A stretch of 64,000 bases of DNA, from contig CM082580.2 in the NCBI GenBank assembly GCA_040954595.2, forward strand, positions 2,098,783 to 2,162,782. The letters run 5' to 3'. Below are positions 298-50,735 of the stretch, one piece after another (positions within the stretch are counted from its first letter, which is position 1; every line of letters begins with the position of its first letter). The notes beneath the pieces are model-generated. The model saw only the letters and a list, made by a program, of their open reading frames with translations. It was not told the origin of the DNA and ran no database searches. The position numbers were made by a program, and so were the translations under genes. This DNA is from Balanoglossus misakiensis. Its lineage: Eukaryota; Animalia; Hemichordata.

Positions 298-915
298 TTA
301 TAAGGTTATTCACAAAATACCGGGATTTATGTCCAAGTACATCGTGCAGCGCAGGTATTGTCCGAGACGCGCAGCGTCGAGGACAATACCGAAGCGTACG
401 ATGTACGAGGACATAAATCCCGGTATTTTGTGAATAACCTTATTATTATACACCTTTTCCGGACGTCCTTGATGAACGATAAAGAATAAATAGGCCGCTA
501 TCGGACTTTCTAGTTTTCAGACGCCGCCATGAGATAATTTGCATATCGAACGCGCCTTGACCTCGCGCATCAGGTGATGCTAGTGTCGAACTGCCGATGT
601 CTCGCGCGACGTTCTACGCTGCTTGCGCTGAACGTGCTCGCCTGTTCAGCGTGGATTTTGACTTATTTCGCATCTTGGGTCACCAATAATTTTGTTTAAT
701 AACGGCTGTGTACTTTTTATATAAATTTTTGTCAGAGTAGGGTTAATATCATTGTTTACATTGATCACCGGTCCTGTGAGGTCAAAGTCACAATGCATCC
801 AATAACCCTGTGGGTTATGGGACTCCGCGTCCTCATTTGAATAATTATTGTACGGTGATACCGCGAATTATTGTATCACGGAACTCCATAGGTTACAGCA
901 GTAGGTGTATAATAA
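298..915 (+). mobile_element. Non-autonomous asymmetric hairpin element (Crypton-like architecture) inserted in the left TIR
   Basis: Hairpin arms 301-334 / 409-442 (TAAGGTTATTCACAAAATACCGGGATTTATGTCC), adjacent IR TTATTATACACCT (~442-454) / AGGTGTATAATAA (903-915). Absent from the homologous position of the right TIR. Confidence 0.75.
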
Positions 916-2339
916 AATTAATTATTTGTAAATAATTTAAGTGCAAGTCTATTATTTACATATAATGAATTACTCGCATAATTATTTATAAATAATGTAT
1001 TATATATAAATAAGTGATTTCTAAACCGTGACAAAATGCACTCATTATTTGCTGCTCTTCATGATTTACGCCTGTTCACACAACCCCTTACATTTGGATC
1101 ATTACGCACACATATAGTCCCCACACGTGAACAAGAAATGCATATTTCGTGCCGTCATTTCATTTTTATTATGCTCCTTTCAAAGGTTAGATGAAACACC
1201 GAAAAAGGTATAAACTAGACAGTGATTTTAGCCCGTGATTTCAATGTTTGATTGAAACGCGAAAAGCTGATCGAAAGCTCCACATTGTGGCCCCCGAGGT
1301 CAAAGGTTGGCCGGTCATTGGGGTCACGCATCACAAGAGCATTATAAATTCAAACTTTGTATAATAATTCACGAAATTTAAGGATTATAATATTACAGGG
1401 CAACGTTATATGTTTTATAATCATAACATACAATTACATTTTCAGTAGAGATATTTGTCTGAGATGCTTAGTTATTGTCGTTATTGGCGTAACATAGCTG
1501 TGCAGCAAAACAGTGAACACAACACATGCCTACACTGCACTGGAACTTGTAAGCGAGAATAATGGATGAAAGGCAACGTGGTACCTCTGATCGCGATCGG
1601 GGATCCGATTTAGCTGCAATAGTCAACCAAGCCGTGTTAACAGCTTTGCAAAGTACTAACTGTAGTGGCACTTCTTCAAGATTTAACTCGGCGACTGATG
1701 GCCAACCGGCAATGCTTCTGTCCACCAAACTCGGCTACTCCAGTTCCGGCCCCTGAAGAAGCAGTTCCATCACAAACACCCAGAAGCGCTAGGGTTGAGA
1801 GATTAATATCATCCCATCGTCGGGCACGTCAGTCACCCTCCTTACTTGACAGTGACGACGATAGGCTGATTTTGTCCCTTCCCAGGTAAGTTCACCAAAT
1901 GCATGTGAATGAATTAAGGTATCTATGCATGAAACCAAGACTTCAAATCTGCTCTTCTTCCTGTGACATTGATTATAGACAAACTGCCACTGATCAGTCT
2001 ATTAGTATTACCAAGTGTCAACTTTGCGAGAAAAAAAAACCGACAAACTTTTTTTAGATTTCAGGACACACTTTGAAGGAACAATACACCAGGAAACATC
2101 AGCACAAATTTCAGTCAAATCCGCGAACTACTTATCGACTTATACATATAATTTAGCAGGGATGTTTCTTGCTATGATTGGATGAAGGATTATGCATCAC
2201 TTCATGTGAAAATGGTGCTTATGCAAATTAGGTCTAAAACATGGTTTTTGGTAAAATAAATCAGTTACTCATGAATGAAGTACTGGGCCGAATTCGCTAA
2301 AATTTGCCAGGGATGTTTCTTGCTATGAATGGATGAAGG

Positions 2340-3606
2340 TGTCACCCACTCCCACGCGGGTGGGGGGTCCAAACACAGGGAGCGGGTCAGAAACTCCTAT
2401 CTATTCCAAAGGGCGTGAATCCGTAGGCACAGCGTTGAATTCCTCTGCATGAGCCTACCACCGAGTCGTATCTCCAAAGCAACACGTGACACACCAGGAT
2501 ATTATAATGTAATGAAATAACTTTAATGTAGAAAAACAAAAGTAGTCCACGTACACTGGACTCCAGAGGGCGCCGTGCACCAAAATACCCCTGTACTTAT
2601 CCCCCAGAAAAGATGAACAGATCTGTTTCTGTGACGTCTTCTATAACACTATCTTAGCAAACTACATCGATGTAAACTCTATAAGATTCTATGCAAATAA
2701 CCCCATGATGAATATTTGAGTAAAGAGTTGTCCAAATATCATCCAATGTTTCAAGTCTCTGTTTCCCAACCCCTGTTGTACTTGCCCAAAGTGATGAACG
2801 CTCGTCGCTCGCGGTGGAAGACGTTGCCTCGACGTTCCGCGTCTGTATGTAGCGATGACGTCAGCACTCCAGAAAATTCCACAGCCACTCCACTGTCTCC
2901 AGCACACTTGCTGTCCACTTGACCTCCGTGCGACTCCCAGAGTCCTCCAGCACACTTGCTGTCCAGCTGCCCTCCGTGCGACTCCTAGTCTCGGTTACCC
3001 AGACGCCCCTGCTTCCTCTGACGCTCTCCAAAAGAGGGTCCGGGGAAACGCCACGAGGCTATGCGACTCCCAGAGTCAGAACGAGGCTATGCGACTCCCA
3101 GAGTCCGGAAAACCACTGCGACCCACAGGAATGTCTATTCTTCCTGTCACCGCACTGCTGGGTGTCTCCCACGCACGATTGAGAAGTGTTGACCTTTCAG
3201 TCAGTCGACATCCGCAACTTTCGGACCGTTTTCGATGACTTCAACAACTCCATCAACTGGTGCGTCCGCCATAAACGAATCTCTCTCCTCGTGTCCTGTC
3301 AAACCCACGCCCAAAAAAAGTAGTAAAAAACCCCCTAGCTCGCTAATAACTCAATACGTCACATGACATCTTTCCAGTAAAATTACCTCAAATAACACTT
3401 TATGCATCACGTCTATCGCTAGATACGTTTTCTTTTACACAAATATGAATTTGTAAACACATGAAACATATGAAGGTTACCAAAAACACATCACAGATCG
3501 AACATTTCCATCAATACTCCCTAGCAACCATAATATACTCTCCAACATCTCATGAGGGCGCCAGACTGGTAAAGTCCAAACACTACAAAATTTGGATCTG
3601 GCCACA
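2340..3606 (-). repeat. 3' LTR
   Basis: TGTCACCCAC...TGGCCACA; matches 10602-11868 apart from one C/T difference I could see near the start. Confidence 0.97.
2986..3061. mobile_element. 76-bp AcademH-type mini-element inside the LTR (second copy 11248-11323)
   Basis: TAGTCTCG...CGAGGCTA flanked by 9-bp TSD TGCGACTCC. First ~66 bp align without gaps to the left end of the MITE at 59616. The preceding 48-bp LTR repeat unit shows the empty site. Confidence 0.85.
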
Positions 3607-3620
3607 TCCTCCCCCCCTCT
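3607..3620 (-). promoter_or_regulatory. Polypurine tract
   Basis: TCCTCCCCCCCTCT on +, all purine on -, abutting the 3' LTR. Confidence 0.9.
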
Positions 3621-4206
3621 AAGAAAGGTTGTCCCAACCGACAAATATAATTTTCCCATGAAAAATTCCCATACAAAATCCTATACTCAATAAAGAATAC
3701 AAATCTGAAAAGTTTGTCATGCTTTCAGCCTCAACCTTGTGCTTCACCTTCACTATGAGTGTTTTACCACTTCAGCTCCAGCTCACACAGACCATGTGCT
3801 TCAGCAGACTCCCTTTTCTTTTCCTACACCAATCAAGCAGGCTCTACATGCTATACATATCGGTGCAATCCTTCGACCATCCCTGACTACAACAGGTTGT
3901 ACTTAAACTACAGTACACAGCAATATGATGAGGAAAGACATTTCACTTGGGAGATTTTAAATCTCTCCTCAACCCAATAAATTGGATGAGGGCTCTCCAT
4001 ACATCACAAGCTCTCATTCCAACACACACGCTGCTAATTCCAATGACAATGCGCCACGCATCAAACACCATGTAAACTTACCCATGTAAACAAGACCAAA
4101 TATTTTATCCCATGTCTAAGCTAATAAGGGGTCTCATGACTTACCTTCCAACATTCACAAATGTGGTATGGTTCATGTCTCCTCCAAATTCAGCTTACCA
4201 AAATTA

Positions 4207-7200
4207 CTAATTCTTAACTACTATCACTTCCTGCAGTTCACAGCCATCCAACCTCAACTCAGGTTGTCTCTGATTCAATTTCATACCTACCTTGGTATCA
4301 CTGCAGTTCATTCTCGGTCGAACATCTTCCAACTGTGCACAGACCATCTGCAAAGTTTTCCGAAGTTCATCCACCACGGACAGTACAAGTCCTACATCCT
4401 GAAACTGAAAATTGTCCCTCTGCATACAAACCTGTGAGAGATTCAATTTATCCGGTGCTCTCCGTATACGTGTAGATCTCCTAGGCAACACTGGTGACAT
4501 AGCAGTATCTACCTCCTCTGACTCGTCCATCTCAGGTTCCTCCCTGGTATCCTCTTCCTCAGGTTCACCAACATCGGGATCATCATCATCATCCACCACG
4601 TTTTCCAATACACCATCTTCCCTCTGAACTGGCTCAATCACTGTAGAATCCATTTCTTCTATCTGTGTAGACCATTCAGAATCATCCCTCGCTTCCGTCT
4701 GTCCAGTGTCTGTCACATCAATTATTTCTTCTGGCTCAATTCTTCCTGATTTCTCTTTCTTCGAACTCTCCCCAGCCATACTTCGTCCTGACCTCTGAGG
4801 TTTCCAAACAAAATCTATCGGATCCTGCTCCTCCTCAGATTCTTCGTCCGTGACATCAACATCTTTCGTCCTCCAAGTTCGCACACCAATTTTCTCCTTC
4901 GGTACCTTATTCCTCTCCGACATCCGCATAGGTCTATCAGGATATGGCATAGGCAACGTATAACAAGGCAACAACAGGTTCCTATGAAGAACACGGTTCC
5001 TTCCAATTCCTGTCTCCGATTCGACCTCATACACAGGCACATCTGGGTTAACCTTTCTCACAACACGATACGGGCACTTCTCCCAGCGATCAGCAATTTT
5101 ATGCTTTCCTCTCAGATTCACATTCCTAACCAGTACTCTGTCTCCAGGTTCCAAAATCGATTCTCTAGCTTTCAAGTCGTAGCGACGTTTGCTATCCAAT
5201 GCACTCTTGCTAGCCTCCTTCGATGCCAATTCATACGCTGTCTTCAATCGCTGACGTAGATCACTGGCATAATCATCCGGTGTACTTCCCGTGGAATCTT
5301 CAGGCTGAATCCCCAGATACACATCTACAGGCAATTTCGGGTGTCGACCGTACATGAGAAAATATGGCGAATACCCCGTGCTATCGTTCCTAGTGCAGTT
5401 GTAGGCATGAACTACTGGTGCTACATAGGTTTTCCAATCACATTTCTTCTCTTCTGGCAACGTTCCAAGCATATCAATGAGAGTTTTGTTAAAACGTTCA
5501 CATTGCCCATTGCCTTGGGGGTGGTAAGGTGTCGTTCGTGTCTTCTCCACTCCAGTAATCTGACATAGTCGCTTTATCACACTAGACTCAAAATTCCGTC
5601 CCTGGTCTGAGTGTATACGACTCGGGAAACCATAATGTACCATGAAATCTTTCCAAAGGTGATCGGCAGTCGTCGTGGCCTTCTGATCCTTTGTGGGAAT
5701 AGCAACCGCATACCGGGTAAAGTGATCTGTGATTACTAATATGTCCCGATATCCTCCCTTTGATGGTTCTAGCTGTAGATAATCCATGCACACCAACTCC
5801 AATGGCTGTGATGTACGGATACTCACCAGTGGTACTTTTCCTCTTCCTTCCGCAGTCATCTTCCGGCGCGTACATCTCTCACACGTGCGGATCTTGGTCT
5901 GTACATCTCTGCTCATTTGCGGCCAATAAAATCTTGAACGGAGCAGATCAAGGGTTCTCTCCTGGCCCAAATGTCAAACTTCATCGTGCACACCTTCCAA
6001 GGCAGTACCTCTGTATCTCGCAGGGAGCACCAACTGGAATTGTGGGATACCATTCACATCGACTCTCTTCCTGTGTAGAACTCCATATCTGAAACATAGT
6101 CTTTTCCATTCACGCAATCCTTGCCGTACCAGTTTCGTTTCTCCTTTCCTCTCCTCGTCTGATGGGTATCTGTCTCTTTCCTTGTAGAAATACAGTCTCC
6201 CAACCACCGAGTCCTCTAGCTGCAATCTCCTCCATTCTTCCATGCTAACAGACGGCAGTGACCTCTGCTCTGGCAATACAGGAGGGGTGTCCAATGCCAT
6301 GGGAACTGCATCCTCAGTACCTCCTATCGCCTCCACACATGGTGCCTGTTCCACCAAGTATGACTGGCATATCGCCTGAACTCCATCCAGTGACAATGAT
6401 CGAGCGCTGTCTCTCTCATCACACTGTATCCACTCCATGCCGTGCTGTCCTTCCTCACTGTCCATAGTCGAAGTCACCTGTGGCCGACGAGATAAACCAT
6501 CTGCGTCACCATTCTGTCTTCCGGGCCTGTACTGTAACCTAAAGTTATACGCAGACAATGCAGCCAACCAACGATGCCCTGTTGCATCTAACCGTGCTGT
6601 AGTTGTCACATAGGTCAATGGGTTGTTGTCAGTCATCACAACGAACTCATTACCATACAAATACTCATGAAATTTCTCCGTCACGGCCCATTTTAGAGCA
6701 AGGAACTCTAATTTATGTGCCGGATAATTCCGCTCACTGACTGACAAACCACGACTGGCATAAGCGATCACACGCTTGTCCTTACCTTCACCCTGATACA
6801 ATGCCGCTCCCAAGCCTAACGAACTCGCATCCGTATGCAGCTCGAAAGGTTTGGCATAGTTCGCATACGCTAACACTGGCGCTGTCGTCAGCTTCTCGAT
6901 CACTGTGTCGAAAGCAAACTGACATTCCTGTGTCCACACAAACTCAATCAGTCGATCCACAGACTTCCGTGTCTTTCCTTTGGCACGACGACTGACAAAC
7001 CCCACAGTGAGGACATTGAGGGGCCTCACTATCCTGGAAAAACCTTCTACAAACCTCCTGTAGTAACTGGCAAAGCCCAAGAATGACTTGACATCTCGTG
7101 CAGTCTTTGGCACAGGCCAACTCTTCAAAGCCTCAATCTTTGAAGGATCCGTACGCACACCATCCGCTGAAACAACATGACCCAAATACTGCACTTCAGT

Positions 7201-10200
7201 ACGCAAGAACTGACACTTTGATGGTTTAACCTTTAAACCACACACCTGCAACCGATCAAACACTCGTTCCAGACGAATCAGGTGTTCCTCGACAGTGGAT
7301 GAAAACACAATAATATCATCCAGATACACTAGGCACACATTGACATTCAAATCACCAAGGCAACGCTCCATTGTTCTCTGAAAGGTTCCTGGGCTACCAG
7401 TCAATCCCATCGGCATTTTCAGACATTCGAACAAACCTACTGGCGTTACAAATGCCGTCTTCTCAATATCTATGTCCTCCATTCCAATCTGCCAGTAACC
7501 GCTTTTGAGATCGATCGAACTGAAGAATCGGGCTCCATTCAATGCGTCGAGACTCTCCTCAATCCGGGGAATGGCGTATGAATCCCTGATTGTACGGTTA
7601 TTCAGTTTCCTGTAGTCAATACATAGCCGGATGCTCTTGTCTTTCTTTTCCACTAACACAATCGGGGCAGCCCACGGGCTATGGGACTCACGAATCACGC
7701 CACTCTCCATCATACCACGTAAAATCTGTCGAAGTTCTTCATACTTCGCTGGGGGTACTCGACGATATCGTTCCTTGATGGGTGTATCATCCGTCAGTCT
7801 AATCCTATGTTTCTCCAAATCACAGAAGCCAAGGTCATTTTCATGTTTCGAAAACACATCTGTCTTCCGATCAAGCAAATCTTTCAGCTGTTGAAGTTGC
7901 TGTTCATCCACGGGAGATTCCGACAGATCAAACTCTACTCCATGACTAGTGAAACTCTTTGCTGTTCGTTTTCCATCGTTGCTGTGTCCTGTCATCTTTG
8001 TCTTCACCTGAGACATAATCTGGTGATCCTTGGGATGTCCAACCCATGTGAGTGCATGAACTTTTCCTATAACTTCTCCTGGTCTGATTACCAGTGGTTT
8101 CATCGTCTTGTTCTGTATTACTACTGAGACTTTCGATTTCTTCTGCAAACAAGTCATCACGGCAGTCGCTGGACTCGTCGTTATTCTTCCTGAAGACTTC
8201 GGGCTAGGCTCCACCAATACTATGTATTCATCACCAATTGGTCCACGTTTTGCTCTTCCCCATACAGTCATTGCATGTTCCGGTTCGATCGTGACTGGAT
8301 GTTTCAGCATACCACGGACATCACCAATACATCCTGTTTTTCCTATGAACTGTTCTCGAGCTTCCAGACGTTTGCAGACTGATTTCCCAACAGGAGACAT
8401 TCTCATGTATCGAACTTGTTTCATCTTTCGCGCTATGCCTGATTTCCATGGGTAATATCCTAGTAAATTCGTTCCAGCTGTCACCGGTACTTCCAAATTG
8501 TAATCGCTATCTCTCACTATCAATGCTGGGATGATGTATTCCTCCTCAATACCAAATACTGCTTCGCGAAAGGACATCGTCACTTCTACAACTCCCAAGA
8601 ATGGTACATTCTGTCCACCAGCACCAGTTATCGTCAATTCTTCGGTCTCTTCTGTCTGTTGAATCGGCAAATGCGACAAGTACTGCCGATAGTAACTCTC
8701 TCCAATGGTCGTCACCTGTGAGCCTGTATCTATCAAGCAACGGCATTTCTTACCTTCTACCATGACAAAGTCTTCATTGGGTGCGCCAACTATCCGTCCA
8801 ACTGTTCTGGTTTGCATCAATATGGACTTCTTGTCACCATGAGGAAATTTTCTGCTCTGCTCTGATGTCACACGCGATTCTGTTTGCGAGGAAACAACCG
8901 ACTGCGATACAACAGGCTTATGGGGACACTTCCGAGCTATATGACCTTCTTGATCGCAGACGTAACACTTCACGGGGCTTCGCTTGGGTAAAGGACAATC
9001 TTTTGCCTTGTGACCAGCTGCTTTACAGTTGTAACACTGCATCGGTTTTCTCCCTGGACTCGAAGTCGTCTGTGGACAAGAGGCTTCACTGCTTTCGGCT
9101 ACCATTCCAGGTGTACTGTCGTATGTCTTGTCCGTCTTCATGTTTGTAATCTCTTCTTTCATCTGTCTGACTTCTTTGTGAAGTGACTGATTTTCTGTCT
9201 GCATACTCTGTAATTTCTTCAGAACTTCGCCAATACCACTGTCAGATTCTGGACTCATCACTGTAGTCTGGTGGGTATGTCCGGCTGGAACACGTCTGGT
9301 CTTTGGCTTCTCATGGAATTCTTTCAATTCTTGCTCTATACCACGTGCTGTACGAACCAATTCATCAAAAGTAATCAGTTGATCACGCTTGTGGTAAATC
9401 ATACTCTTCAAATTTCCATCGGCTAGTTTTCTCCAGAAAACAGTGCGAAGTGTTTCATCCACTAGCTCCTCACGAATTCCTCCACGTAGTTTCACCTTGT
9501 TAATGGCCAACTGCAAGCGAGAACTGTATGCTGCAATAGTTTCACCATCTTTCTGATCGCTGTCACGATAGAAACTTTCAAGTAACATTGCTCCGGTTTC
9601 AACTTCGCCATAAATGATTTCTAATTTTTCAAGAATGGTATCCAAACTGGCATTGACTCCAAGATGCATGACTGTTAAACCTGCGTCTCCCTTTAATGAA
9701 GCACGTACCGCCTGAACCAACACTTCAGGGGAATAAATGTTGTCAATACGTAAACATTCAACCTCATATTTCCAAAGGTCAAATGCCACATCGCCCTTGC
9801 GAGTTTCATCGCCAGAAAATGTTGACAAACGCGGCCGCTGTAAAAATCCTGCAGGTACACGCATCTGTCTGTTTCCATCCTCATATGACAATCTCATCGT
9901 AGGGGTGCTCGTCATTGGGGATTGACCTGCATTACTCGAAGGGGTAAACTCAGTTCCAAATGGTAGGTATGGTTTTCTAAGCTCATCTGCTCTAGAACTT
10001 ACCTTTTTATCCATCTTTGGGGCAGCTTTCCCATCACTCACCTGTTCAACTTTCACTTTCGGTTCCACTTCTCTCTCTTTCATGGCCCATCTGCCTCTCC
10101 CTCTACCTGTTCTGGCTCTAGCTCCACTACCTCTTCCCAGTGGTAAGGGATGATCACCTTCCTGAAATTCAGACTCCATAACAGTGTTAGGGGTATCAAA

Positions 10201-10239
10201 TTCCTGTTTTGTGGGTGGTGTTTCCATTGCATTCAACAC
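4207..10239 (-). CDS. gag-pol: Gag-Pol polyprotein (PNMA-like Gag, two CCHC knuckles, protease, RT, RNase H, integrase) with one in-frame TGA at 5974-5976
   Basis: CYNCKAAGHKAKDC and CYVCDQEGHIARKC, LIDTGS, YLDD, TDAS, integrase H-H-C-C, MDY, HSDQGRNF, CERFN. ORFs 5974-10239 and 4207-5970 share a frame across GVHDEV*HLG. Confidence 0.96.
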
Positions 10240-10579
10240 ACTGGCGCAATGTTACAGTAACCAGCCTGTACTATCAACACTATTACACAGTACTATCACA
10301 CCACACCGCCCTGGGACAATTTAGTCAAAAGGCAATGGGAACCCAAAATAAATATCCGAAATGACCACAATGATATTTAACTATGTGTAAATTCAGAGAT
10401 GATCACTGCAATGCACCTATAACGTACTACACAATAGAGCTGCCTCGTTCACTAACTATCCTATAAAATGCTATAATATCCTATATCCAGCAAGTGTCAC
10501 AAAAATTACTTCAAAGACGACTCAGTAGCAAACATCCATGCATTTCAACACATGAACAAATGTTTGTACTGTACACAAA

Positions 10580-10597
10580 GCCCCACGTTGGGCGCCA
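10580..10597 (-). promoter_or_regulatory. Primer-binding site, tRNA-Lys type
   Basis: Minus strand TGGCGCCCAACGTGGGGC, 4 nt from the 5' LTR; matches the known tRNA-Lys1,2 PBS. Confidence 0.92.
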
Positions 10598-10601
10598 TTT
10601 C

Positions 10602-11868
10602 TGTCACCCACTCCCATGCGGGTGGGGGGTCCAAACACAGGGAGCGGGTCAGAAACTCCTATCTATTCCAAAGGGCGTGAATCCGTAGGCACAGCGTTGA
10701 ATTCCTCTGCATGAGCCTACCACCGAGTCGTATCTCCAAAGCAACACGTGACACACCAGGATATTATAATGTAATGAAATAACTTTAATGTAGAAAAACA
10801 AAAGTAGTCCACGTACACTGGACTCCAGAGGGCGCCGTGCACCAAAATACCCCTGTACTTATCCCCCAGAAAAGATGAACAGATCTGTTTCTGTGACGTC
10901 TTCTATAACACTATCTTAGCAAACTACATCGATGTAAACTCTATAAGATTCTATGCAAATAACCCCATGATGAATATTTGAGTAAAGAGTTGTCCAAATA
11001 TCATCCAATGTTTCAAGTCTCTGTTTCCCAACCCCTGTTGTACTTGCCCAAAGTGATGAACGCTCGTCGCTCGCGGTGGAAGACGTTGCCTCGACGTTCC
11101 GCGTCTGTATGTAGCGATGACGTCAGCACTCCAGAAAATTCCACAGCCACTCCACTGTCTCCAGCACACTTGCTGTCCACTTGACCTCCGTGCGACTCCC
11201 AGAGTCCTCCAGCACACTTGCTGTCCAGCTGCCCTCCGTGCGACTCCTAGTCTCGGTTACCCAGACGCCCCTGCTTCCTCTGACGCTCTCCAAAAGAGGG
11301 TCCGGGGAAACGCCACGAGGCTATGCGACTCCCAGAGTCAGAACGAGGCTATGCGACTCCCAGAGTCCGGAAAACCACTGCGACCCACAGGAATGTCTAT
11401 TCTTCCTGTCACCGCACTGCTGGGTGTCTCCCACGCACGATTGAGAAGTGTTGACCTTTCAGTCAGTCGACATCCGCAACTTTCGGACCGTTTTCGATGA
11501 CTTCAACAACTCCATCAACTGGTGCGTCCGCCATAAACGAATCTCTCTCCTCGTGTCCTGTCAAACCCACGCCCAAAAAAAGTAGTAAAAAACCCCCTAG
11601 CTCGCTAATAACTCAATACGTCACATGACATCTTTCCAGTAAAATTACCTCAAATAACACTTTATGCATCACGTCTATCGCTAGATACGTTTTCTTTTAC
11701 ACAAATATGAATTTGTAAACACATGAAACATATGAAGGTTACCAAAAACACATCACAGATCGAACATTTCCATCAATACTCCCTAGCAACCATAATATAC
11801 TCTCCAACATCTCATGAGGGCGCCAGACTGGTAAAGTCCAAACACTACAAAATTTGGATCTGGCCACA
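10602..11868 (-). repeat. 5' LTR
   Basis: Direct repeat of 2340-3606. Confidence 0.97.
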
Positions 11869-13247: not shown

Positions 13248-14270
13248 GTTAGGTCCCATTGGTATGTACAATGGGACCTTATGGGATCGGTTGCGTCTGT
13301 ATGTATGTATGGATGTATGGATGGATGTATGTCTGTATGTCCGTCCACATCAAAAACTTGAAAACCGTTGCGCGTATGACCTCGATATTTGGTGTGTAGA
13401 TGAAGGCATGGCTGTAGATGGGAGTTTGTTCAAATGAAGTTGTCATTGCCAAAAATATGCAAATTAGCTGGGAAAATGTGAAATTGGTCAAAACTCAAAA
13501 ACTCAACAACCACTGGTCATATTGATTTGAAAATTGGTATGCATGTACCTTATGTCAACCTCATACTGTCCTGTATGTTTTGAGCTAATATTATTGATTT
13601 CTTATTTTTCATGCATTTTTTTTTATTTTTCCATGTTATTGGTAAAAAGTCTTCATTTCTGAAAGTGATGGGCTTACTTCTTTGAAATTTAGTATGAAGC
13701 TTCCTAATGGTTGTCAAATTGTTGCAAAATTTGCATATATATAATTTTGAGCAATATTTGCCATTTTTGGTCAAAAATGTTTTTCTTTAAAACCGCATGC
13801 CAGATTGCTTTGCAATTTGGTTGGCATGTTCGTAGGGGTAACCTAAGTAATATGTTATAAAAAAATGTGATATTTTCATAAATGTGTTATCGGGGAAACT
13901 TTTGCAATTTTGTCAAAAATTGTTTCTCTGAAACCGCTTTTCATATTGCATTGAACTTTGGCAGGCATGTTCCTTGTAGTGATTGAAGTAAGATATTGTA
14001 CAATTTTGGTGATATTTGCATATTTGTGTTTTTGCCACTTTTGAACAAATATTATTTGTGAAACTGCTTATTTGATTGCTTTGAAATTAGTTTTTTCTCT
14101 GATTGCTTTGAAATTTAGGATATAATTTCATAACACATACATGTATATGTGCAACTTTTATTAAATTCTGATATCAGAAATATTCAATATTTAGCGAGTT
14201 TTTTTGTAAGTTTCTTTGTTTTTGGTTAGCAAATCTTCTCCTAAACCAATTGTCCAGTTGTTTTGAAAGT
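13248..14270 (+). mobile_element. Helentron/HINE-like non-autonomous repeat in a HECT intron
   Basis: 5' hairpin AGGTCCCATT..AATGGGACCT followed by a (GTAT/GGAT)n microsatellite and degenerate tandem cores (GATTGCTTTGAAATTT) also seen at 30150-30480. Confidence 0.5.
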
Positions 14271-19269: not shown

Positions 19270-20757
19270 ATAACTGATTAAACCACGATCGTGACGTCAC
19301 ACTATTCAATAGACAAGTCATTCACTGAGAGAACCTCCGTTTCACACAAAACCACAGGTTGAAAACCAAGTCCCGGGTAGTTCTAGAACTACCTCCGGGG
19401 GTTCTAGAACTACCACAGGACTCAGTCTCACCTGTCGTAACAAAAATACAAATACACAATGCTTTATTTGCATAATTACATTTACTTCTATACCTGTATT
19501 CAAAGTACATTTCATTTGAATAGAGTAATTGTTATGTTAATTGAAAGTGAACTGGATATGCGACATTCTCCGGATCATTTCATTCAATGCTTCACATTCA
19601 CAGTTTTGTCTACTGACGTACAAAGCTAATGTCTTGGTGGCTCTCGAGAGTCTTCATAACATGATAAAGTATAAAATAGACAAAAATCAATTCACCAGAA
19701 ACAAACTAACGTTGCAATAAATTCACTACAAATTTCTAGAAAATTATACTAAATCACATTATCCCCAGATTTGCTTGTATTACTCTAACCAGATGCTTCA
19801 CTTCGATTTTGCTTCACTACCGACATGTAACAACGTTGGCTGTTTTAGGCCTACTGTTTAACAAAACCCGCGTACCTTGCAAAATTCTGCTTACTTTTTG
19901 TTGCTGTTCACCAGATGTGCGTTTGTAATGTCGGACGGCTTCACTTCGGTATCAAGTCTTTTCGCAGATGAGTTACTCACCAATATATCGCTACCATACA
20001 GACGCGTTGCCGCTGTGGCTCGTGGAGAGTGGTTCGTTCAAAAGCTGGGGAGGCCAATATACAGACGGGCAGTAGTACCATGTAGAGCATTGTGACCCGC
20101 TTTTTGCTTTACCCACATGTAGCCGCTTGTTTTCGCAGATGATATAGATCGGAACTAGATGTATCTTCAGATCGATTTCATGGACATTTGAAGGAAAATA
20201 AACTAAAACGTGACACTTACATGTAGGCCTACTGCATTTGGCCTAGAAAATTTTCGCGTAAGCTTACCATGTGCACGCAAAACCCCAATAGCTGTATAAC
20301 CCTTCCCATAATACACTACGTAACACACCTGTAAAGTTTAATTTGATGCAAATTGAAGTTTGAAATTAGCATATCACTCCGACACGTAAGCATGAACATT
20401 TAGAGTAACACCTGTCAAGCGTGGGCGATCTTGTAAGGCCCAGCAGGGCGGTCTAGAACTACCTGCCCACGACATGATTCATTTATAGGAAGAGGGGTGG
20501 CCAACCAAATTTCACAGTCAGCAATGAAGAATAAGCCTCTTTTGATAAGCTTTTGTTCGTTCATTTTATTGAATCGTTGAGTAAAACGACGTCTTTGTGG
20601 CACACAAAGCTCCAATGGTGACAATGTATGTGGGGGATCGTGGTTTAAGTTAGAGAACCACCTCCCCCTCAGTGGTTCTTGGTTTCCAATCGCCTCGGGC
20701 CTGCGGCCCTCGGCGATTCGAAACCAAGAACCACCTCGGGGTCGGTGATTCTCTATT
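19270..20757 (-). mobile_element. Non-autonomous asymmetric hairpin element (Crypton-like architecture) interrupting a HECT exon
   Basis: IR TTAAACCACGATC (~19278) / GATCGTGGTTTAA (~20636), then a long hairpin 20652-20754. Removing it restores ..QQENI|ITYLWNEFL.. Confidence 0.72.
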
Positions 20758-21039
20758 ACATACTTATGGAATGAATTCCTTGCATCTTGTGACAAAGGTA
20801 AATTTGTATGTCACTTGATCAAACAAAATTAGTGCACATGAAGTGTATATATACTGTTCTTGTAAACTGTCAATTACTATTATAGCAATGTGTACATGTA
20901 GTTTATGCCATACACTGAAAGTTACACGTTGGTTCATGTGGAAAATCAAAGCAGGCCTGAAGTCTTAGACTGTCGTATATAGAAATACTATTATAATAGG
21001 ATTTGTGTGTGTACATGACAGATGATATGAACTATAACA

Positions 21040-25980: not shown

Positions 25981-26417
25981 TATATCTTGTATACAACTAT
26001 TAATAACAGTGAAATGTAAGTCATGATACTTAATATAAGGGACTGTCCAGAATTTACTTCCAGGGTGGGGCTGGAGGATTTCTTATTTTCCTTGTGATTT
26101 TTTCCATGCCCCCCCTAGTAAATTGTGGAGGAAATCTGTGCCCCCCCCTTAAATTTCATGGGTTTTTTCCATGCCCCCCCCCCCAATATATACATGCATG
26201 CTTACAGAGTACGGCAGATATAGTCTGACAAGTTCATCACCCTTTGCAAGAACAATCAAGAGATCATTTACTTACTGATATAACCAATTTTAGTGGGGAC
26301 AGTTAAGTGGTCATAAAAATCATGTTTTTGCAGGGACTGCAAGTGGAGGTATGTAAGGGTACCTCAAACCTCAATCTGGGACAAGAAACTGGGACTCCCA
26401 GATGTCACAAAATGCAG

Positions 26418-26518
26418 TCTGGGACCGGTCCCAGATTAGGTCTGGGACCGGTCCCAGACCTAATCTGGGACCGGTCCCAGACCTATTCTGGGACCGGTCC
26501 CAGACCTATTCTGGGACT
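26418..26518. repeat. Subterminal 23-bp tandem array of an 18-bp palindrome (left)
   Basis: TCTGGGACCGGTCCCAGA x4.5 with 5-bp spacers TTAGG, CCTAA, CCTAT, CCTAT. Confidence 0.95.
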
Positions 26519-28334
26519 GACCAATCACCGAGCCTGAATCACCATATAAGCCCACCTCTTCCCGATACTTCACATGCATACACGCGTACTTGTTGAACGT
26601 CAATCACGATCAAAGCCAACCTCTAATATGACACTGCATGCATAATATTATTCTAGAAGCTACAAAAGGTAAAACTTTCTATCATAGCCAACACGACGGC
26701 CGCGGTAGTTAGACGTTACTGTCCAAAGCTTTAATTTGTTCTTCTACGAAGTCATGTCATCGTTTAGAAATGAACTCTTTATTGCCGAGTGCAACGATTT
26801 TGCGAGTTTCCGGAAGAAGCGGAAAGCCCAAGCCACGCCAACGGTATCACGGCCGTGTAAACAACGTCGGAGGTAAGTCAAGTGTGCCGTTGTGCTTTCC
26901 GTCTCGTCGGTGTTTGTGACTGAGTGGTTGTGTTTATGCGCACGTAGCAACAGTAGTGTAAAATGTCTTACAAAATTTATTTGAAAAAGGGTACTCCTGG
27001 AACAGCTTTCCGCTCACTTTCGACATAGCCGTGTTTTGTGTTCGCGTACGTGTTCGTTATTTACATAGAGCGAGGTTCACTGACCGACGCCATTTTGAAA
27101 CAACTTATCGTACACACGTGTGTGTGTGTAAAAAAGTTCTGTTACCGCCACGTCGTCGCTGTCAACTTCGCTAGTCACGAGAGTATGAGAAAGAAAACAA
27201 GTTTCATGAAACTTCTCACTTAACATCCTTTGATTTACGAGAAAAATCGAAAAACTGTGAAAGGCGGTGGCCAAGTTCCCGTACGGCACCAGTATCCATA
27301 CAAACAGAAATTTACATCCCTTTCAGAGGGTTTCGTTTTTCAGAAAATTGTGTCTAAAGAGCTTGATTTCCAAGGATTTTTCAGTGAACATCAGGTGGAC
27401 GTTGTTTGGTTTCTTCATAGTACATGACAAAGTTTTTCAACCCGACCGTGAAATTTGTGTACTAGTAAATAAAACTACCAAGCGTTTAATTCATTAGTTC
27501 AGTTTGAGTCGTGAAAGCTGGTCACCGTTTGTTGAAAATATAACCACCGCAGAAGTAGAGATCGATTTGTTGCCTAAAATTTCTGTCAGTCATTTTTCGT
27601 AAAGATATGAAGTATCTGAGAACGGCAACCCCGTTGTGTGTTCGTCCGTTGTGGCCCAGATTCTAAGGACTGCCTAACTCAGTGGTTATAATCCCTTTTG
27701 TTTCCAATTAGATAAATTGCATATGGCAGTTTATTACACAGCCATCTGGATATCTTTGTAAGACAGCAATATGGATGAAGTTTTCATGTAAAAAGTATAC
27801 CTATATTAGCCTTTACATGTGTATTGTGTTATGCTAATTAAAAAAATTATGTTTCAATTTCAGGATGGTAACAAGCTCCCAATGTGGTCTTCTCAATGTA
27901 AGGCATGAATATCTAAGACAACTTGGGCATAGGAAACGACTTTGGAGATTGGCCGAAAATACTGTTTACGTTGTGGCTGACTGCAACAGAACTGATGGCT
28001 CTCTGTTGAAGAAGTACTTCATGGTTGAACAAAAATTGTTTTTCCATAACCAAGATAGGAGTGAAACAGCCACCATATTGACTTGCAATTGTGAAGAGGC
28101 TTATGTTGAATCAGAACGACTAAAGACAACTGACCCATGTGTGTATGAAGATTTCAGCACATTTATCTCTACAGTCAAAGAGAAGTACTGTATACATGCC
28201 TGGGCTGTAGATGTGTCATTATGCTGGACACAGCCAGAAAGTGTTGTCTGTGAAACATGTAGGAATCATTCCTAATTTCAACAATGCAGATATGTATAAA
28301 CAGCAACTTTATCTGACTGATAAAACAAGATTTT

Positions 28335-40300: not shown

Positions 40301-40728
40301 TGAACCCTTGTTGTCCATGTTACAGACAAAACGTAATATTTATCTGTTATTTTTCCCTTTGGTAGATGTTCAGCGGGGTACAACATGAACACGTACTCGA
40401 CTAATCAAGAATTGGTGCAGCTAAATTCGCAGATCTGTGAACAGACGAATGCTACAGTAGCCCGGTTGAAGGCACAGCTGTCCTACATGCTTCCTGACAA
40501 CTTCATATACCATGTTGCTCTGTTTCTTGGTTTGGCAAATAAGAAGATTCAAGATGCACTTAAAGGACACTAATAGATACAACACTTGAAGGAGACATGA
40601 TGATTGTAATGCATTTTGATAATTTATTGACACTGAAAGTATAGTATAAAAAAGTAAATACAAAAAAAAATACACATGAAATGAAATGAATGATGAATAT
40701 AATTACTAAAAAAAACATACATATGAAG

Positions 40729-43700: not shown

Positions 43701-43742
43701 GATTGACCAGCTAACACTCTGCTTCTTAGAACAGCTCTCCAT
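40729..43742 (-). CDS. NRF1/Erect-wing/P3A2-like DNA-binding-domain protein carried by the KDZ element
   Basis: Exon 1 (43742-43178) encodes LRKLLPVLV..GRSQPLWGRAGKAPCWWPSSIPFAN..WVSLLRKAARACYTHHN, resembling NRF1 KPGWGKESCKPIWWPEDIPWAN..WTQALRTIVKNCYKQHG. Candidate further exons ~42538-42403, 42262-42178, 41533-41414 and 41084-40729 (basic KRKKKRSEK stretch). Confidence 0.75.
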
Positions 43743-46700
43743 CGTTTCAGAGTTTACGAGGAATGAGTAACACACGTTTATGTGTCAGTTTTTATACTTG
43801 CTCGTGCAAACTGCTGGGAAAGTGTGAATTGTAATTGACAATGCGGCGGTTTTCATATAAGGCGGAAAAAAAGTTACTACAAAGTGTGTTGGAACAGCGA
43901 GGTGTGAAGCTATTGTTAAAATCATTAATTGTTGTCTCCTGTCAGTCATCCAGCAAACATATAACCTAATACATTTTTGTCTTTGTAAAAAAGAATGATA
44001 CTAAAAGAAATAGAACAATGATGACTGGTCAGTGCCTTTGACGATTTTGCCGAAAGTTCGACGGACGTAGAAACAACATGCTGACTTGGTAAAGTTTGTT
44101 GAATTATAGTAAAATACCATTTCTAATTTAAAATTTGTCTCTGCTGAATGAAGATAACGATATATTTCACAATAAAGTCTGTAACAATCTAGTCAATTTT
44201 ATGTCGTCGCAGACAGTCGAAATTTTCAGCTTGCATGGTTTTTGTAGTAAAAAGCTCTTGGGTGTGAATAACAAAAAGTGATCTTTTATCTTGTTTAGTT
44301 GATTGGCAGATGTCTCAATGCCCTTTGGTCAGTTTTCACCGCCACTTAATCGTCATGGTATAAGGTATAAAGCCATCAGTTCGCGTGTAGTGTATATTCA
44401 TTGCGTGGGAATCTATAGTTCACTTATTAGTATACTGATACATAATGGTTTCATCTTTTTAAATAATAAAATAAAACGTTTTGGCAAGGGGAAGATGACA
44501 TTGGAGTGGGCCGCAAATTTCAAAATACAAAAAATCAGACTTTGGCGGCATAGATTTGATTATATGCGTTTTCAGTTACCAATTATATTCCTGAAAATAA
44601 AGTAGCTTATTATGAGAAAATTTTCGGCAACAATGTGCGAAAGAGAATACCTTGTTCACTTACGTATGATTCCGTTGATATCATTGTATTGCTAGCAGGT
44701 AATTTCGAAATTTTCAGGAAGTACGTCCAAACATGACTAATTAAGATGCTAGTAATCAAAACCCGGTAACCCGGTATAATCTAGAAGACTTAATGACCCT
44801 GTACATTTGCTCCACATTTAAAATATGTTTCCCCCCCCCCCCACCTTTTTGACTATATCTGGAAACAACGACACTGCCCTATCCGTTTACTGCTAGGCAA
44901 ACGAAAAGTTTTGTAAATAAAACCTATATCTTATGCTGCAAAAAATGACTTCAACCTGATAACACGTCCGTCATCAACACATTTATCTTATCGTCTAAAA
45001 ACGAACGAACTGCGAGCAGAAGTACGAGCTCGTACGAGTGACGTAATGTCACCGTACTTTCAAAGTGGGAGTGATGTAATATCAGTATTTTTCGACAGTC
45101 AGCCTGTTCTGCATGTTCTGTCGTACTTTTGTACTGTGTATATTTCTGCAAAAAACAAACAATCCAACAGTTATTGCAGCTACACTTGCGGTAGTTTCGT
45201 ATAGTGCCGACCGGCATCTACAAAATGCTCCCAAACTTATTGTATCCAAAGCCCCGTGCGGTCTGCAGCCGATCACTTTCGCTTGAATACAATCCCATAA
45301 ACCGACCCGACATCAGATATTCTATATATGTCAATTTTTTGCTCTCGTTTTGACCGTTTGAGTTTTCTATTCCGAGTGATATCGGCAGGTTATCGCAACC
45401 CACAAAGGTTAACACCCTTACTATTGTTTTGCTCCGAATGACACGCCGAAAAACTGCTGTATGAAAATTTTTGACACCTCGTTGACTGATCATTATTTAC
45501 AATGAGCTCTGTAATGAGGGTGTTACTTTTGTTTTCACCACTGGACATACCGCAACACATTCACACCTTTATTGGCCCTGGTGATGCGCCTCAGTCGATC
45601 GGCCGCGCGCAAAGAAATACAAAATTACTGAAACATTGTGAGATGTGGCCGACAAAGCAAAATGTCGGGGGAAAAACAAAGAAAATAATGGGAGCCATAC
45701 TGTAACCCGCGACTTAGCCGAAACCGCGACTTATTGAGGCGCGACTTAGCGAGGGTCTACTGTATTCGGAACAAGTTAAGGCATACTATATTAAAAAAAG
45801 AACTGTTTCAACCGTACTGAAAACTGCAATAAAGATTATTGGAAACGTGCGTAAATTGACAAAATTTTCGACCGTCTTGACCTCAAAATCGAAAGAGGTT
45901 TGAATGTCGGGCTATGGGGCTCTGTGAAACATGTAATACTTTATTGGAAAAGTACGTAAATTACATCATTGTCGTCTGCATGTCTTGACCTCAAAACAGA
46001 AAAAAAATGAGAAATACAGCACATTCCGGGACCAATTGGTTGAAATCAGTTTTGCAAAGCGATTTTTGTGTGGAAATCTCAAAACTTTTGAAAAAAGATA
46101 GGAAAAATAACTGCGGGTGGCGTAGCACGCTTACGGTGGAATGGTGTATGACACCCGAGCGATTTGTGACATTGCGCCGTGGAGATGGCAGTGGCTGGCG
46201 CCATCAAGATAAATGTGGGACATCAATATATGACATTAGGCAAAGTTTATTTTTATGTTATTAAAATTGCTCTCAACTAAAAGCTTGTGTTAATTTGAAT
46301 TATAATACTTTTTACATGACGTCCTGTGCCATTTCTTGTACTTTCGCCAGCACTTTATTGAATCTCAGCGTGAGATACACAGTTATGGTCAGTATAACTT
46401 TTGAATCGGACCTTGATCGATGCTATTTTTGTGATGTAAGACATTTTACAGTGTATTAGATATTCTGAACTGTGCGTGAGTGTCTATATTTTACCGATTT
46501 TTACTACAGTTATGAGTCGAGCCGGGCCCTATCCAAAACGAATTTCTTCTGGTCCGTGATTCTCCACTTACGTATAAGCTTACCCTTAAACCCTTGATCA
46601 CCAAATTTAACTGACTTTTATCATAGTACACATGTACCGCCGCGCCGGGACTGACAATGTTTCAACCACGGTTACTGGAAAAGAAAATACATATTTCTAA

Positions 46701-47438
46701 TTCCCATGATTCCTGTTGCTTATTTCAGAGAAAGGTTTATTCACCCCCGCCATACAATGGTCAATTCGGTACGTTGATTGGTTCTTTTACGCAACGCTAC
46801 TGATGACGTATTGTTATTATGGTGATTAGCGGTTGCGTATCACGTTCAACATGCATGAACAATGAAAAAATGTAATGGAGGGACTGTGACGCGTCAGAGA
46901 ATCGCGAACGTCTCCCTCAGTCCCGCTCGAAGCTTTGTCAACTCCGCAAACGTCCGAAGTTGTCGTTTGGATTTACAATCACTTGAGATATGTGTAATAA
47001 CGATCTTAGAGGGTAATTACAAATAAAAAAGAGACTGGTCAGACGATATACCACGAATATTGTCCCGTGTTTATGTGTGCGAAGAGTAGCGTAAGCCGAT
47101 ATCACGTAGCTCATAGGGAAAACATACGGACGTACGACATAGAAAGATCGAAAGTGAACAAAAGCAAACAAGTTTACCTAAAGTTTAAGAATCTTTATTG
47201 AGTAAAAGGAAAGGCCAAGCTACTATAGTGGGCTAGCTCAGTCCCGTACCGGTCCCAGACCTAATCTCCGACATTGTTTACACGGCCGTGATACCGTTGG
47301 CGTGGCTTGGGCTTTCCGCTTCTTCCGGAAACTTGCAAAATCGTTGCACTCGGCAATAAAGAGTTCATTTCTAAACGATGACATGACTTCTATGCATGTG
47401 AACATGGTGAAGTATCGGGCTTATATGGTGATTGGTCA

Positions 47439-47585
47439 GTCCCAGAATAGGTCTGGGACCGGTCCCAGAATAGGTCTGGGACCGGTCCCAGAATAGGTCT
47501 GGGACCGGTCCCAGATTAGGTCTGGGACCGGTCCCAGACCTAATCTAGGACCGGTCCCAGACCTAATCTGGGACCGGTCCCAGAC
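47439..47585. repeat. Subterminal 23-bp palindromic tandem array (right)
   Basis: TCTGGGACCGGTCCCAGA x6.5; a partial extra copy at ~47248. Confidence 0.95.
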
Positions 47586-49729
47586 TGCATTTTGTGACAT
47601 CTGGGAGTCCCAGTTTCTTGTCCCAGATTGAGGTTTGAGGTACCCTTACATACCTGGCAAGTGGCACACTTTTGGGAAGCCTAGCAATGGGCAACTGAGA
47701 TTGTAATTTTATGAAAATAAGTTAATTATGACAAAAATTCCTGTCACTATGTCCACTACATCAAACACTTTTGTTGTAAATAAGACATGTCAAAACACGT
47801 CAGCACTTTTGCATCAGAGGTTTTTCAAAGGAAAATATACAATTATCGTTATATCTAATTATCAAGCAGAGTCATAGTATTTGTTTTATATTTTTCAATA
47901 TAGCATTTTTCAATGGATCATCTGTGACATTTTCAGGAAATTGACAGACTGAGTACTCAATTGTTTAACAATTTCACATTTTACTTTCTGCTTTTAACAA
48001 TCAACAATCAAGTATTTTTTAGAAAATTTAAATAAATAGCAGGTGTATTTGGGGAGAGACACACTACAAACAATTTTCATATCAGATGTTAGCGCTGGTG
48101 CATCTTTACATATTTCTGATTACTGGCTGAAAATGGGTGTTTAATATAGCTAAATGTTTTGACATTATTTCATTATTTTATTTTCTGTGTGCCAACAATG
48201 GTTTCTTATGCTATTCCCACATAGAACACCCCATGCTGTTTAGGCAACATACATATATGAATGATTGATAAGAAAATTAACGAATTCTAGTCTGGACTTG
48301 AATTGAGCTCATCAACAGTAACAACACTGACTGTTCACTGAACATATATGGTCTGTGCTGGCAGGCCAAATACTGGGCATTTTATTATGCTTCACAGAGT
48401 AGAACAAGAAACTGTAGTAGATATACAAAATAACCCACCGTAAAAATTACCGGAAATTCAAGCTTATGAAGATTTAATGCACTTGTGGAGTTCATCTGTC
48501 ATCCAGGTAGCCATGGTGGTTTGTTTCTTATAAATCAGTACTTCTCGGCAAATATTGAGTTTGTGAGGGTTTTTTACATGCCCCCCCCTAAAGGATTGTG
48601 ATTGTTATGCCTGCCCCCCCCTAAATTTTCTTTGGGGAAATGGGTGCCCCCCCCCCTGAAAATCCTCCAGCCACCCCCTGGAAGTAAATTCTGGACAGTC
48701 CCTAAGGCATGCTAGTATACCAGTATATCATATATTGCTACAATATAAATTAAATATTATGTGTTTATATCATTGCTGAAGACGTACTGGTACAATTCGT
48801 GGAATTTACGTTTTGCATTATAACCCTGTTTTATTTCTAATCATCGGTACAATTGACTTGACAAAAAATACAGAAACTTGATTTTTACACCCCAATACTA
48901 GGGTCGTCAAGCAGTACGTGCCTATGGCTACCTGTCCTCCAATAATATTTTGGGGACGGAGGGAGGGGCCGGGGTATCGTTACTGTTAGATCTAAACAGC
49001 TAAAAGGGCGTTTATCAATTAACTTCAACGCTTATTATACCCAGGATAAAAAATCTGTGCTCTTATAATAGTATACTACTACTACTACAGTACGTGTAGA
49101 AGACTTCCGTTTAAAAATTTTCGCAACCCAACCCCTAAACCGCCCAAAAATAACGCTTATGGCGGGCAGTCCCCACTCACCAACACTTGATACTATTCAG
49201 TTTTGGCAAACTTGTTGGTAGCCTTACCTGTGGAGGTACAACATCGGTGTCCTTTTCGTCACAGTTAAAAGGCAATTCAACCTGGCTACTGGAGGCTTGA
49301 GTGGGAGCCACGGCTGATGGAGTCGCTGATGAACTTCTAGCAGCCGAGCTGGTGGAAGTAGTGCCTCTACTAATGTTACGTAGTGCTTCTCTCACAGCTT
49401 CCGACACGACCGCTTTTGGATCGGATGATGAGTTACGACCCTGTCGATTCATTTATATACTCTCTAATAATTTAATATTTAAAACTTAAAAGCTAGCCCT
49501 GTAACATTATAATCCTTAAATTTCGTGGATTAAACAAAGTTCGCATGTGGGGACTATATGTGTGCGTAATGATCCAAATGCAAGGGGTTGTGTGAACAGG
49601 CGTAAATCATGAAGAGCAGCAAATAATGAGTTGACAAACGCGAGTGCATTTTTTCATGGTTTAGAAATCACTTATTTATATATAATACATTATTTAAAAA
49701 TAATTATGTGAGTAATTCATTATATGAAA

Positions 49730-50735
49730 TTATATTATAGCTTTATCAATACCAGCGAATTTTGTGACGTCATAGCTATACATTATTACTGATAATGTAT
49801 CGTGTTATTCGATGGACGCGCGACGCGCCCAAGAACCAGTGGACGTGTACAATTTCCGACTGAATAACGGAGGATTTCAAACAATGCGAACATTTTAAGG
49901 GCTAAAAAAGAAATGCAAACGTACACAGAATAAATACGGCGATATTTATTAATTTCTATATCTGTCCTCGACTGGCATTTTGTTTATTTTTTCTTCCTAC
50001 GGCTGCAGTACATGTCGTCTGCTCTTGAATCACGCGCAGTCAACATGGCTCACTCACGCACGTAAAGCAAACCTCTCCATGATGCTGGATTTGACATTCG
50101 TTCACCATACATACCGTGTACCATGTACAAAGCAGTCATGTCAACGAAGCTATACGTAAAAAAATATGCCGCAAGTGTCACTGTCATGTTGTCTACGCGG
50201 TACGGAGGGTCGATCGAGGGCGAGTTTGTTTATGTATTGCAACCTTCCGAGCGCCCGTATACGTGAACTTTCCTGAGAACGCAAACGAATTCAAATATTC
50301 CCCGAGTCATCCCCAAGATTACACAAAAATCGAAACTTTTTCAGATATATTTCAGCAGAACCCTTAAATGAATTTTCACATGCGTTAATAAACCTTCATT
50401 ATTTATTTCCTGATGTTTGAATATGATACTAGAAATGTACAGTACACTGATACACCGCGATCAGGTGACCTTTTGTCTACGCGTACGCCATTGCTCTGTT
50501 CTCGATCTCCGTGTCCGAGTCTGAATTGTTCGCACCTATACTTTTTGAAGTCTGCAAATTCACTGGCATTGACAAAACTATAAAATAATGAGAATAATGA
50601 ACGCCCCAAAGACCCATAATGGACTCAAGCACACATTGCGCTAGCTCCATAATATACTCGGCTTCGCCTCGTATATTATGACGCACAATGTGTGCTTTCG
50701 TCCATTATGGGTCTTTGGGGCGTTCATTATTCTCT
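49730..50735 (-). mobile_element. Non-autonomous asymmetric hairpin element (Crypton-like architecture) inserted in the right TIR
   Basis: IR 49733-49762 / 50556-50587, then hairpin arms 50590-50624 / 50700-50734. Absent from the homologous left TIR position (~955). Confidence 0.75.

Follow-up and report, generated by a model that had tools for sequence, protein, structure and literature searches.

Hairpin-ended, gene-less elements of the hemichordate Balanoglossus misakiensis as probable non-autonomous Cryptons with a candidate folded-strand substrate

A 64,000-nucleotide stretch of the Balanoglossus misakiensis genome (contig CM082580.2, positions 2,098,783 to 2,162,782 of the forward strand; below, the window) contains three gene-less elements, at 299-915 (E1), approximately 19278-20758 (E2) and 49730-50736 (E3), all of which have a terminal hairpin of 105-146 nt with a C(GNA)G loop and tandem GA/GA bubbles on one strand. 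Next to each hairpin lies an inner inverted repeat that mirrors the far end of the element, giving an asymmetric pair of repeats, one terminal and the other beside the hairpin. Judged by this design, E1-E3 are probably non-autonomous Crypton transposons, because in a locus from metagenomic data (L216) the complete layout surrounds a gene that has the motifs of a tyrosine recombinase. We further propose, at a probability of about 0.55, that the substrate of the recombinase acting on these Cryptons is a folded single DNA strand. The parts of the three elements, in window coordinates, are as follows.

299-915, plus strand: E1, a non-autonomous element, 5'-TA...TAA-3', in an AT-rich host repeat without duplication (host units lacking the element at 50789-51254; in sequencing run X4, loose ends at 295/299 and 915).
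299-444, plus strand: E1 terminal hairpin, with 35 bp, AA/GA (most copies have GA/GA), about 14 bp, a third bubble (GA/GA in organism B), 10 bp, GA/GA, 5 bp and a GCA loop (folding, reads).
443-455, plus strand: E1 inner inverted repeat, mirror of the 3' end (complementary to 903-915 at 13 of 13 positions).
903-915, plus strand: E1 terminal inverted repeat (found in organism B too).
19278-20758, minus strand: E2, a non-autonomous element with uncertain ends, the alternative being 19271-20753 (repeat comparison, no reads).
20651-20755, minus strand: E2 terminal hairpin, with 12 bp, GA/GA, 4 bp, GA/GA, 24 bp including one G.G, GA/GA, 5 bp and a GCA loop (folding).
20636-20648, minus strand: E2 inner inverted repeat (complementary to 19278-19290 at 13 of 13 positions).
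19278-19290, minus strand: E2 terminal inverted repeat (13 bp match to the inner repeat).
49730-50736, minus strand: E3, a non-autonomous element whose site is a second copy of the repeat that hosts E1 (loose ends at 49728/49729 in runs X4 and X6; host comparison).
50590-50734, minus strand: E3 terminal hairpin, with 35 bp, GA/GA, about 15 bp, GT/GA (many copies have GA/GA), 10 bp, GA/GA, 3 bp and a GAA loop (folding, reads).
50569-50588, minus strand: E3 inner inverted repeat of 20 nt, whose pairing with the terminal copy includes two G.T wobbles and one T.T (alignment).
49730-49749, minus strand: E3 terminal inverted repeat (found in organism B too).

The hairpin tips had been picked out in a first-pass annotation, made from the sequence, as a design common to three otherwise unrelated elements. 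All three tips were recovered in place and on the expected strand, establishing the design as real, and blastn found no similarity between E1, E2 and E3 (best E 0.8). The layout it gave also stands, with E1 starting at 299 instead of 298 and the ends of E2 uncertain by about 8 nt. Among 59 matches in the window to a short stem with a 2x2 bubble, only three distinct sites have at least 7 outer pairs, and these are the three tips; the pattern CCGAG-N1-4-CGNAG-N1-4-CGAGG has 2 matches in the window (E1 and E2), compared with 0 in 100 shuffles. Further bubbles do recur down the stems, some of them lacking the C-GA-G context. Six of the seven 2x2 loops in the three stems are GA/GA, the seventh being AA/GA, and E1 has in addition a 3x3 loop (GCA/GAA), located in the window copy between stem segments of 10 bp and about 13 bp as read from the tip. 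The frequency of GA/GA (6 of 8 loops) corresponds to P of about 3e-11 under a rough null of 1 in 100 per loop. The window copy of E3 has an irregular stretch between the tip GA/GA and the 15-bp segment. In three further long inverted repeats of the window the mismatches are scattered and no GA/GA tandem occurs, and the hairpins have no match in Rfam. The claimed strand asymmetry holds in that the GA tandems lie on one strand, though this strand is predicted (ViennaRNA) to fold just 2.5-5.5 kcal/mol better than its complement. When the two ends of an element are joined, folding predicts a stem that runs on through the joint, where it has a bulge or loop of 1-3 nt, in five of five cases (E1, E2 with both choices of ends, E3, L216 and a further locus, L251).

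All three elements read TA...TAA on the strand where the hairpin is 5', and their inverted repeats measure 13, 13 and 20 bp for E1, E2 and E3, respectively. E1 and E3 occupy two copies of one AT-rich host repeat, so that empty sites are present within the window. By comparison with the empty host units, E1 is an exact insertion of 299-915 with zero target duplication, the sole clean empty site; at E3 a duplication is likewise absent, and one side shows a small change, the host TA being replaced by TTT. The limits of E1 are marked by loose contig ends with diverse flanks at 295/299 and 915 (64, 48 and 32 contigs, X4), as is one end of E3 at 49728/49729 (63, 59 and 33 contigs), its hairpin end being drawn from the host comparison. 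The E1 and E3 insertion points lie about 40 nt apart, in the same orientation, in AT-rich repeat copies at 235-1400 and 49498-51400; this host repeat bears a 78-nt tandem array, and the shared insertion region may be target preference or chance. Inside E2, the stretches 19369-19422 and 20448-20463 hold an 18-bp palindrome and two more partial copies, possibly a nested element or an array of binding sites.

Family copies of E1 and E3 were followed in reads from runs X1, X4 and X6, leaving out the small-share runs X5 and X7-X10 and run X11, which shows E1 at a depth of about 2; the variant figures are summed depth units among the variants listed, and depth is not equal to copy number. In organism A (one sample, two runs), the summed depth of E1 and E3 ranges from thousands to tens of thousands. 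For organism B, coverage is confined to the two ends of E1 and of E3, identifying the ends as the conserved parts. In E1, 335 A>G creates a second GA/GA (32370/34817 in X1, 27843/31041 in X4), and in organism B 352 C>G creates a third (16486/17759 in X4) and the loop changes from GCA to GTA (10175/10989 in X4). In E3, 50681 A>T likewise gives a third GA/GA (1308/1409 in X4, organism B; 12734/45713 in X1). Covariation among family copies, which the first-pass annotation had put forward as a check, was found once, as a compensatory change of an A-T to a G-C pair in E3 in organism B (50654 A>G, 13564/14026, with 50674 T>C, 10255/10474, in X4). In X1, positions 50672 and 50674 change on one side only, which yields G.T on the strand where the hairpin is 5'. 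With their bubbles restored, E1 and E3 share one geometry, namely 35 bp, GA, about 15 bp, GA, 10 bp, GA, 3-5 bp and GNA, in dissimilar sequences. The window copies of E1 and E3 are partly decayed. Bubbles and loop are kept from copy to copy, in keeping with selection for a folded strand.

These data also bear on the proposal that E1-E3 are ordinary cut-and-paste MITEs (miniature transposable elements with inverted repeats), with decayed palindromes and chance mismatches, for which their high copy number, lack of genes and AT-rich targets would speak. However, GA opposite GA is two transversions away from a perfect pair and is nevertheless the majority state, and the other inverted repeats of the window lack the motif. 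A DDE MITE has inverted repeats at both extremities and a target duplication, whereas the repeats here are asymmetric and E1 has no duplication. Already contradicted by the family data, this explanation is highly improbable.

The same design was found in metagenomes, through a scan for the E3-type tip in about one sixteenth of a collection (about 4 of 64 parts), which gave 122 matches at 120 loci. Long stems are present at 29 of the 122 matches, all on contigs of 34-48% GC, and several of these loci lie near animal-type exons (TSP1, VWA, Kazal, DOMON and TMEM101). The search pattern demanded the first GA/GA and the GNA loop, and for this reason only the outer loops were counted. Under strict stem scoring with G.T counted as paired, the 44 unselected outer 2x2 loops of the 29 loci comprise 31 GA/GA, 4 TC/TC and 9 others. 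A looser mismatch tally (39 loci, 26/70 GA/GA) was dropped because of noisy alignments. The E2 spacing GA-4-GA-24-GA recurs in a family (L221, L236 and L277) that has no blastn match to E2 and also has the mirror repeat and the TAA end. The 4 TC/TC loops come from L184 and L273, in which the tip alone is inverted relative to the rest of the element (L184:1524-1542, L273:301-319).

The link to an enzyme is provided by L216, where the minus strand carries, in order, the hairpin, an adjacent 23-nt repeat, a two-exon open reading frame (ORF) and a terminal repeat, that is, the full layout, and where the GA strand is the sense strand of the recombinase. The second exon weakly matches the tyrosine recombinase family PF00589 (E 2e-4, under the curated cut-off). 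Nine relatives of the L216 protein include four rows with PF00589, three of them short-listed, and a source-named fly protein. A wider search gave 5861 representatives, and among the 57 relatives that were aligned R147 is kept in 52, K174 in 50, H254 in 54, R257 in 56, W280 in 51 and Y289 in 52. The L216 family profile matches XerA/XerC-like and Cre structures, while a phmmer search of the L216 domain against the PDB gave 0 matches. For the relative P0007, 44-50% identical to the L216 exons, a structural model (predicted local distance difference test, pLDDT, 88) has Cre as its best fold (E 2.5e-11), with integron integrase at rank 39. A single-sequence fold model with a pLDDT of 37 was discarded. 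L216 is likely CryptonI-type, since CryptonI was found only in insects, according to the available text of PMC3212892.

E1-E3 and Cryptons (CryptonA, CryptonI) are alike in several ways: in L216, which has their design, a tyrosine recombinase is the only enzyme, gene-less derivatives with only the ends in common are abundant, E1-E3 lack symmetric terminal repeats and E1 lacks a target duplication. Terminal direct repeats of 4-6 bp belong to the fungal and oomycete Crypton groups and are not expected in CryptonA or CryptonI; animal Cryptons have no terminal repeats according to Kojima and Jurka (2011) (PMC3212892, available text), and none of 4-6 bp was seen at E1 or E3. By contrast, no sequence match ties E1-E3 to any named Crypton, so that the link is one of design. 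The ancient vertebrate Crypton relics Eulor5 and Eulor6 were classed as Cryptons through similarity at their termini, with no hairpin given in the accessible part of that source (PMC5753468).

Several results weigh against this assignment. The enzyme link comes from one of 29 hairpin loci, and at that locus the tip is degraded (an extra A, and a TA/GT loop) and the enzyme is insect-type. E1-E3 have no sequence in common with L216, and their sole blastn match to the 120 loci is a 28-nt tip. No DUF3504, integrase-type recombinase or Helitron domain was found by Pfam in the 147 ORFs of the window, nor a recombinase remnant in the window by hidden Markov model and tblastn searches; no longer copy with E1-E3 ends and a tyrosine recombinase, of the kind that the first-pass annotation suggested looking for, was found there. 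Neither was a Helitron domain or DUF3504 found in 86 ORFs (at least 95 aa) from 26 of the 120 loci, where Pfam at E 1e-3 also missed L216, and locus searches that started from the recombinase gave nothing in viral contigs or prokaryote genomes. The 29 loci belong mostly to two families and so amount to a few independent cases, and the count of 31/44 is consequently not one of independent observations. The E3 site is not a clean insertion. In the reads, E1 431 T>G erodes the stem as the majority state in X1 (53446/79158), with no partner change among the variants listed; 396 G>A breaks a pair (6353/10688 in X1) unless unlisted partner changes exist; and two minor variants of X4, 391 G>A and 392 A>T, degrade a bubble. 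Finally, the bare tip occurs in phage contigs without a long stem. With the enzyme at one of 29 loci and no remnant in the window, the Crypton assignment rests on design. Of the two enzyme classes originally suggested, a tyrosine recombinase of Crypton type is thus favoured through a carrier found elsewhere, and an HUH enzyme is disfavoured, as no Helitron domain was found in the 147 window ORFs and 86 locus ORFs and the long hairpins and their flanks do not match Helentron ends.

The HUH alternative holds that E1-E3 are non-autonomous Helentron/Helitron2 elements moved by rolling circle. HUH enzymes read folded single strands. Helentrons, the related HINEs and Helitron2 have the same order of parts, with asymmetric inverted repeats, a hairpin at one end and no target duplication (PMC4067079, PMC3627910), and their asymmetric subterminal repeats of 12-15 bp compare with the 13, 13 and 20 bp found here. 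Their palindromes, however, are 5-10 bp long with T-run flanks, at least two T standing at either end and TT serving as the insertion site (same sources, in the parts available), whereas E1-E3 have stems of about 50-70 bp, many times longer, with fixed bubbles. When the hairpin is read as the 3' end, no T run follows it, the flanks being A- or C-led in all three elements. Moreover, the sole enzyme found with the hairpin design is the tyrosine recombinase of L216, and Helitron domains occur in 0/86 locus ORFs and 0/147 window ORFs. This origin is quite unlikely.

For the preferred reading, the closest precedents are bacterial. The integron attC site is recognised solely as a folded strand, with extrahelical bases choosing the strand, and integration of phage CTX is the closest parallel (Escudero et al. 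2016; PMC4792948, available text). E1-E3 resemble attC and CTX attP in the precedence of structure over sequence and in the favouring of one strand, and unpaired bases near the crossover, as well as a single exchange with replicative resolution, would be predicted for them. They differ in being eukaryotic, in having as the site two joined ends plus an internal mirror, not one palindrome, and in their tandem G.A pairs and GNA caps, known here from sequence and folding. In the proposed mechanism, the GA strand would fold when exposed, for example at a replication fork, and a recombinase supplied in trans would exchange one strand only, so that a single-stranded circle, rod-like in shape, is peeled out. 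Next, the stem through the joint would serve as a pseudo-duplex site for recombination with a double-stranded, AT-rich target. Replication would complete the insertion and leave no target duplication, in the manner of attC and CTX. One strand would be held in its fold by the GA/GA tandems and the GNA loop, which would also break up a perfect palindrome in the duplex, a role for which no direct reading by the enzyme is needed.

That tips of this kind have uses elsewhere is documented. GCGNAGC mini-hairpin DNA has the same C(GNA)G cap and sheared G.A pairs, with exact instances in E1 (GCGCAGC) and E3 (GCGAAGC), and has been described at origins of phages and plasmids and at the N4 promoter (PMC13037366), whereas here it caps a long transposon stem. 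In viral contigs, generic tips were found at 111 and 23 loci, with a long stem in 0 of 135 tip matches and 0 E1-specific tips, and the loop is GNA at 23 of 48 CGAG-GGCC-NNN-GGCC-CGAG sites, where 3 would be expected. Six viral contigs (L113, L114, L121, L123, L127 and L128) have an E2-type tip among other mini-hairpins in non-coding DNA, near terminase-like ORFs (by eye) in L123 and L127. At L254:812-830, a hairpin copy that continues into a 67-bp perfect palindrome, possibly an assembly artefact, lies near PolB and endonuclease VII ORFs. A distance of 12-35 bp or more separates the GA/GA bubbles from the predicted cut site. With the bubbles so placed, and with phage contigs carrying the tip on no long stem, generic stabilisation is no less likely a role than the enzyme-read recognition code of the first-pass annotation. 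Since the tip is generic in viral contigs and phage origins, a design for stability is the better reading of the 'code', in preference to a set of enzyme contacts.

The same facts would also fit a different role for the hairpin, in which E1-E3 are non-autonomous Cryptons that recombine as double-stranded DNA and the hairpin serves cruciform extrusion, the priming or replication signal of a circle, or the exclusion of single-strand-binding protein (SSB). A double-stranded circle is the published Crypton model (PMC3212892, PMC13565253), phage single-strand origins and the N4 promoter are marked by GNA mini-hairpins, to which SSB binds poorly (PMC13037366), and both the GNA enrichment of viral contigs, which makes the tip generic, and the distance of the bubbles from the predicted cut site would fit. 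Recombination of duplex DNA nevertheless leaves unexplained an inner mirror repeat with G.T wobbles on the GA/GA strand (E3), and with inverted sites it should flip the whole hairpin, whereas among the copies listed just tip-only flips are seen (L184 and L273). These tip-only inversions may be real or may be template switching. A hint of a tip flip also exists in the E1 family, in 4 contigs with a matching loose end at position 390 (X4). No whole-hairpin flip was seen among the listed copies of the larger metagenome family, a weak test in view of the short contigs; in the parvovirus-type telomere flip and flop forms of the whole hairpin occur in similar amounts, whereas tip-only flips and the position-390 hint were seen here, on short contigs. 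We regard double-stranded recombination as the main alternative, though a rather unlikely one.

Lastly, the hairpin might act as RNA, as a structured 5' leader or a source of small RNA. The GA strand of L216 is the recombinase-coding strand, as this would have it. Tandem G.A pairs and G.U wobbles are stable in RNA too. The C-G-closed GNA triloop, however, is a speciality of DNA, with a melting temperature of 76.5 C for DNA mini-hairpins as against 39 C for r(GCGAAAGC) (PMC13037366); in addition, the stem across the joint exists only once the ends are joined, and the Rfam search gave 0 matches. A role as RNA is improbable.

Elsewhere the window, eukaryotic in character, is rich in repeats and has several kinds of transposon domain (Gypsy, Mutator, Harbinger-type and others). 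A Gypsy-type long terminal repeat element at 2340-11313 has a zinc knuckle, reverse transcriptase, RNase H and integrase, and the compared pieces of its terminal repeats are 100% identical. At 54870-61611, terminal inverted repeats of 203 nt (99%) surround THAP, helix-turn-helix plus DDE_Tnp_4, YqaJ exonuclease and SAP ORFs, presumably an element resembling ISL2EU, and DEAD and Helicase_C fragments (61726-63116) lie directly past the 61611 repeat. An inverted pair with 23-nt palindromic tandem units, at 26347-26877 and 47261-47655, is spaced 21 kb apart, and between its members are weak CxC4 and KDZ matches, Mutator-like ORFs and an Nrf1-like domain.

The Eulor5/Eulor6 consensus may have a similar hairpin tip. 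No description of hairpin-built Crypton or Eulor ends was found in the literature, Repbase Reports, Dfam notes and subscription papers being outside that search. The words 'hairpin', 'palindrom' and 'stem' have 0 occurrences in the main text of PMC3212892, as do 'hairpin' and 'stem-loop' in the available portion of the 2026 Glomhopper paper (PMC13465315). Crypton transposition is without experimental demonstration and a double-stranded circle is assumed, according to the accessible part of a 2026 review (PMC13565253). New here are a likely CryptonI-type carrier, a bubble spacing common to unrelated families, and the presence of the same tip in phages. The end design yields exact oligonucleotide substrates and a strand prediction, making the question of mechanism directly testable. 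The odds are about even that a folded circle of single-stranded DNA is the route of transposition in more than one subgroup of animal Cryptons, as the eukaryotic counterpart of integron and CTX recombination; in that case the element would carry the mirror of its joined ends, and a rod studded with G.A pairs and capped by GNA would select one strand. If true, single-strand recombination by tyrosine recombinases extends beyond bacteria, and the signature of hairpin plus mirror would allow unclassified animal repeats to be assigned, and their ends drawn, without a protein.

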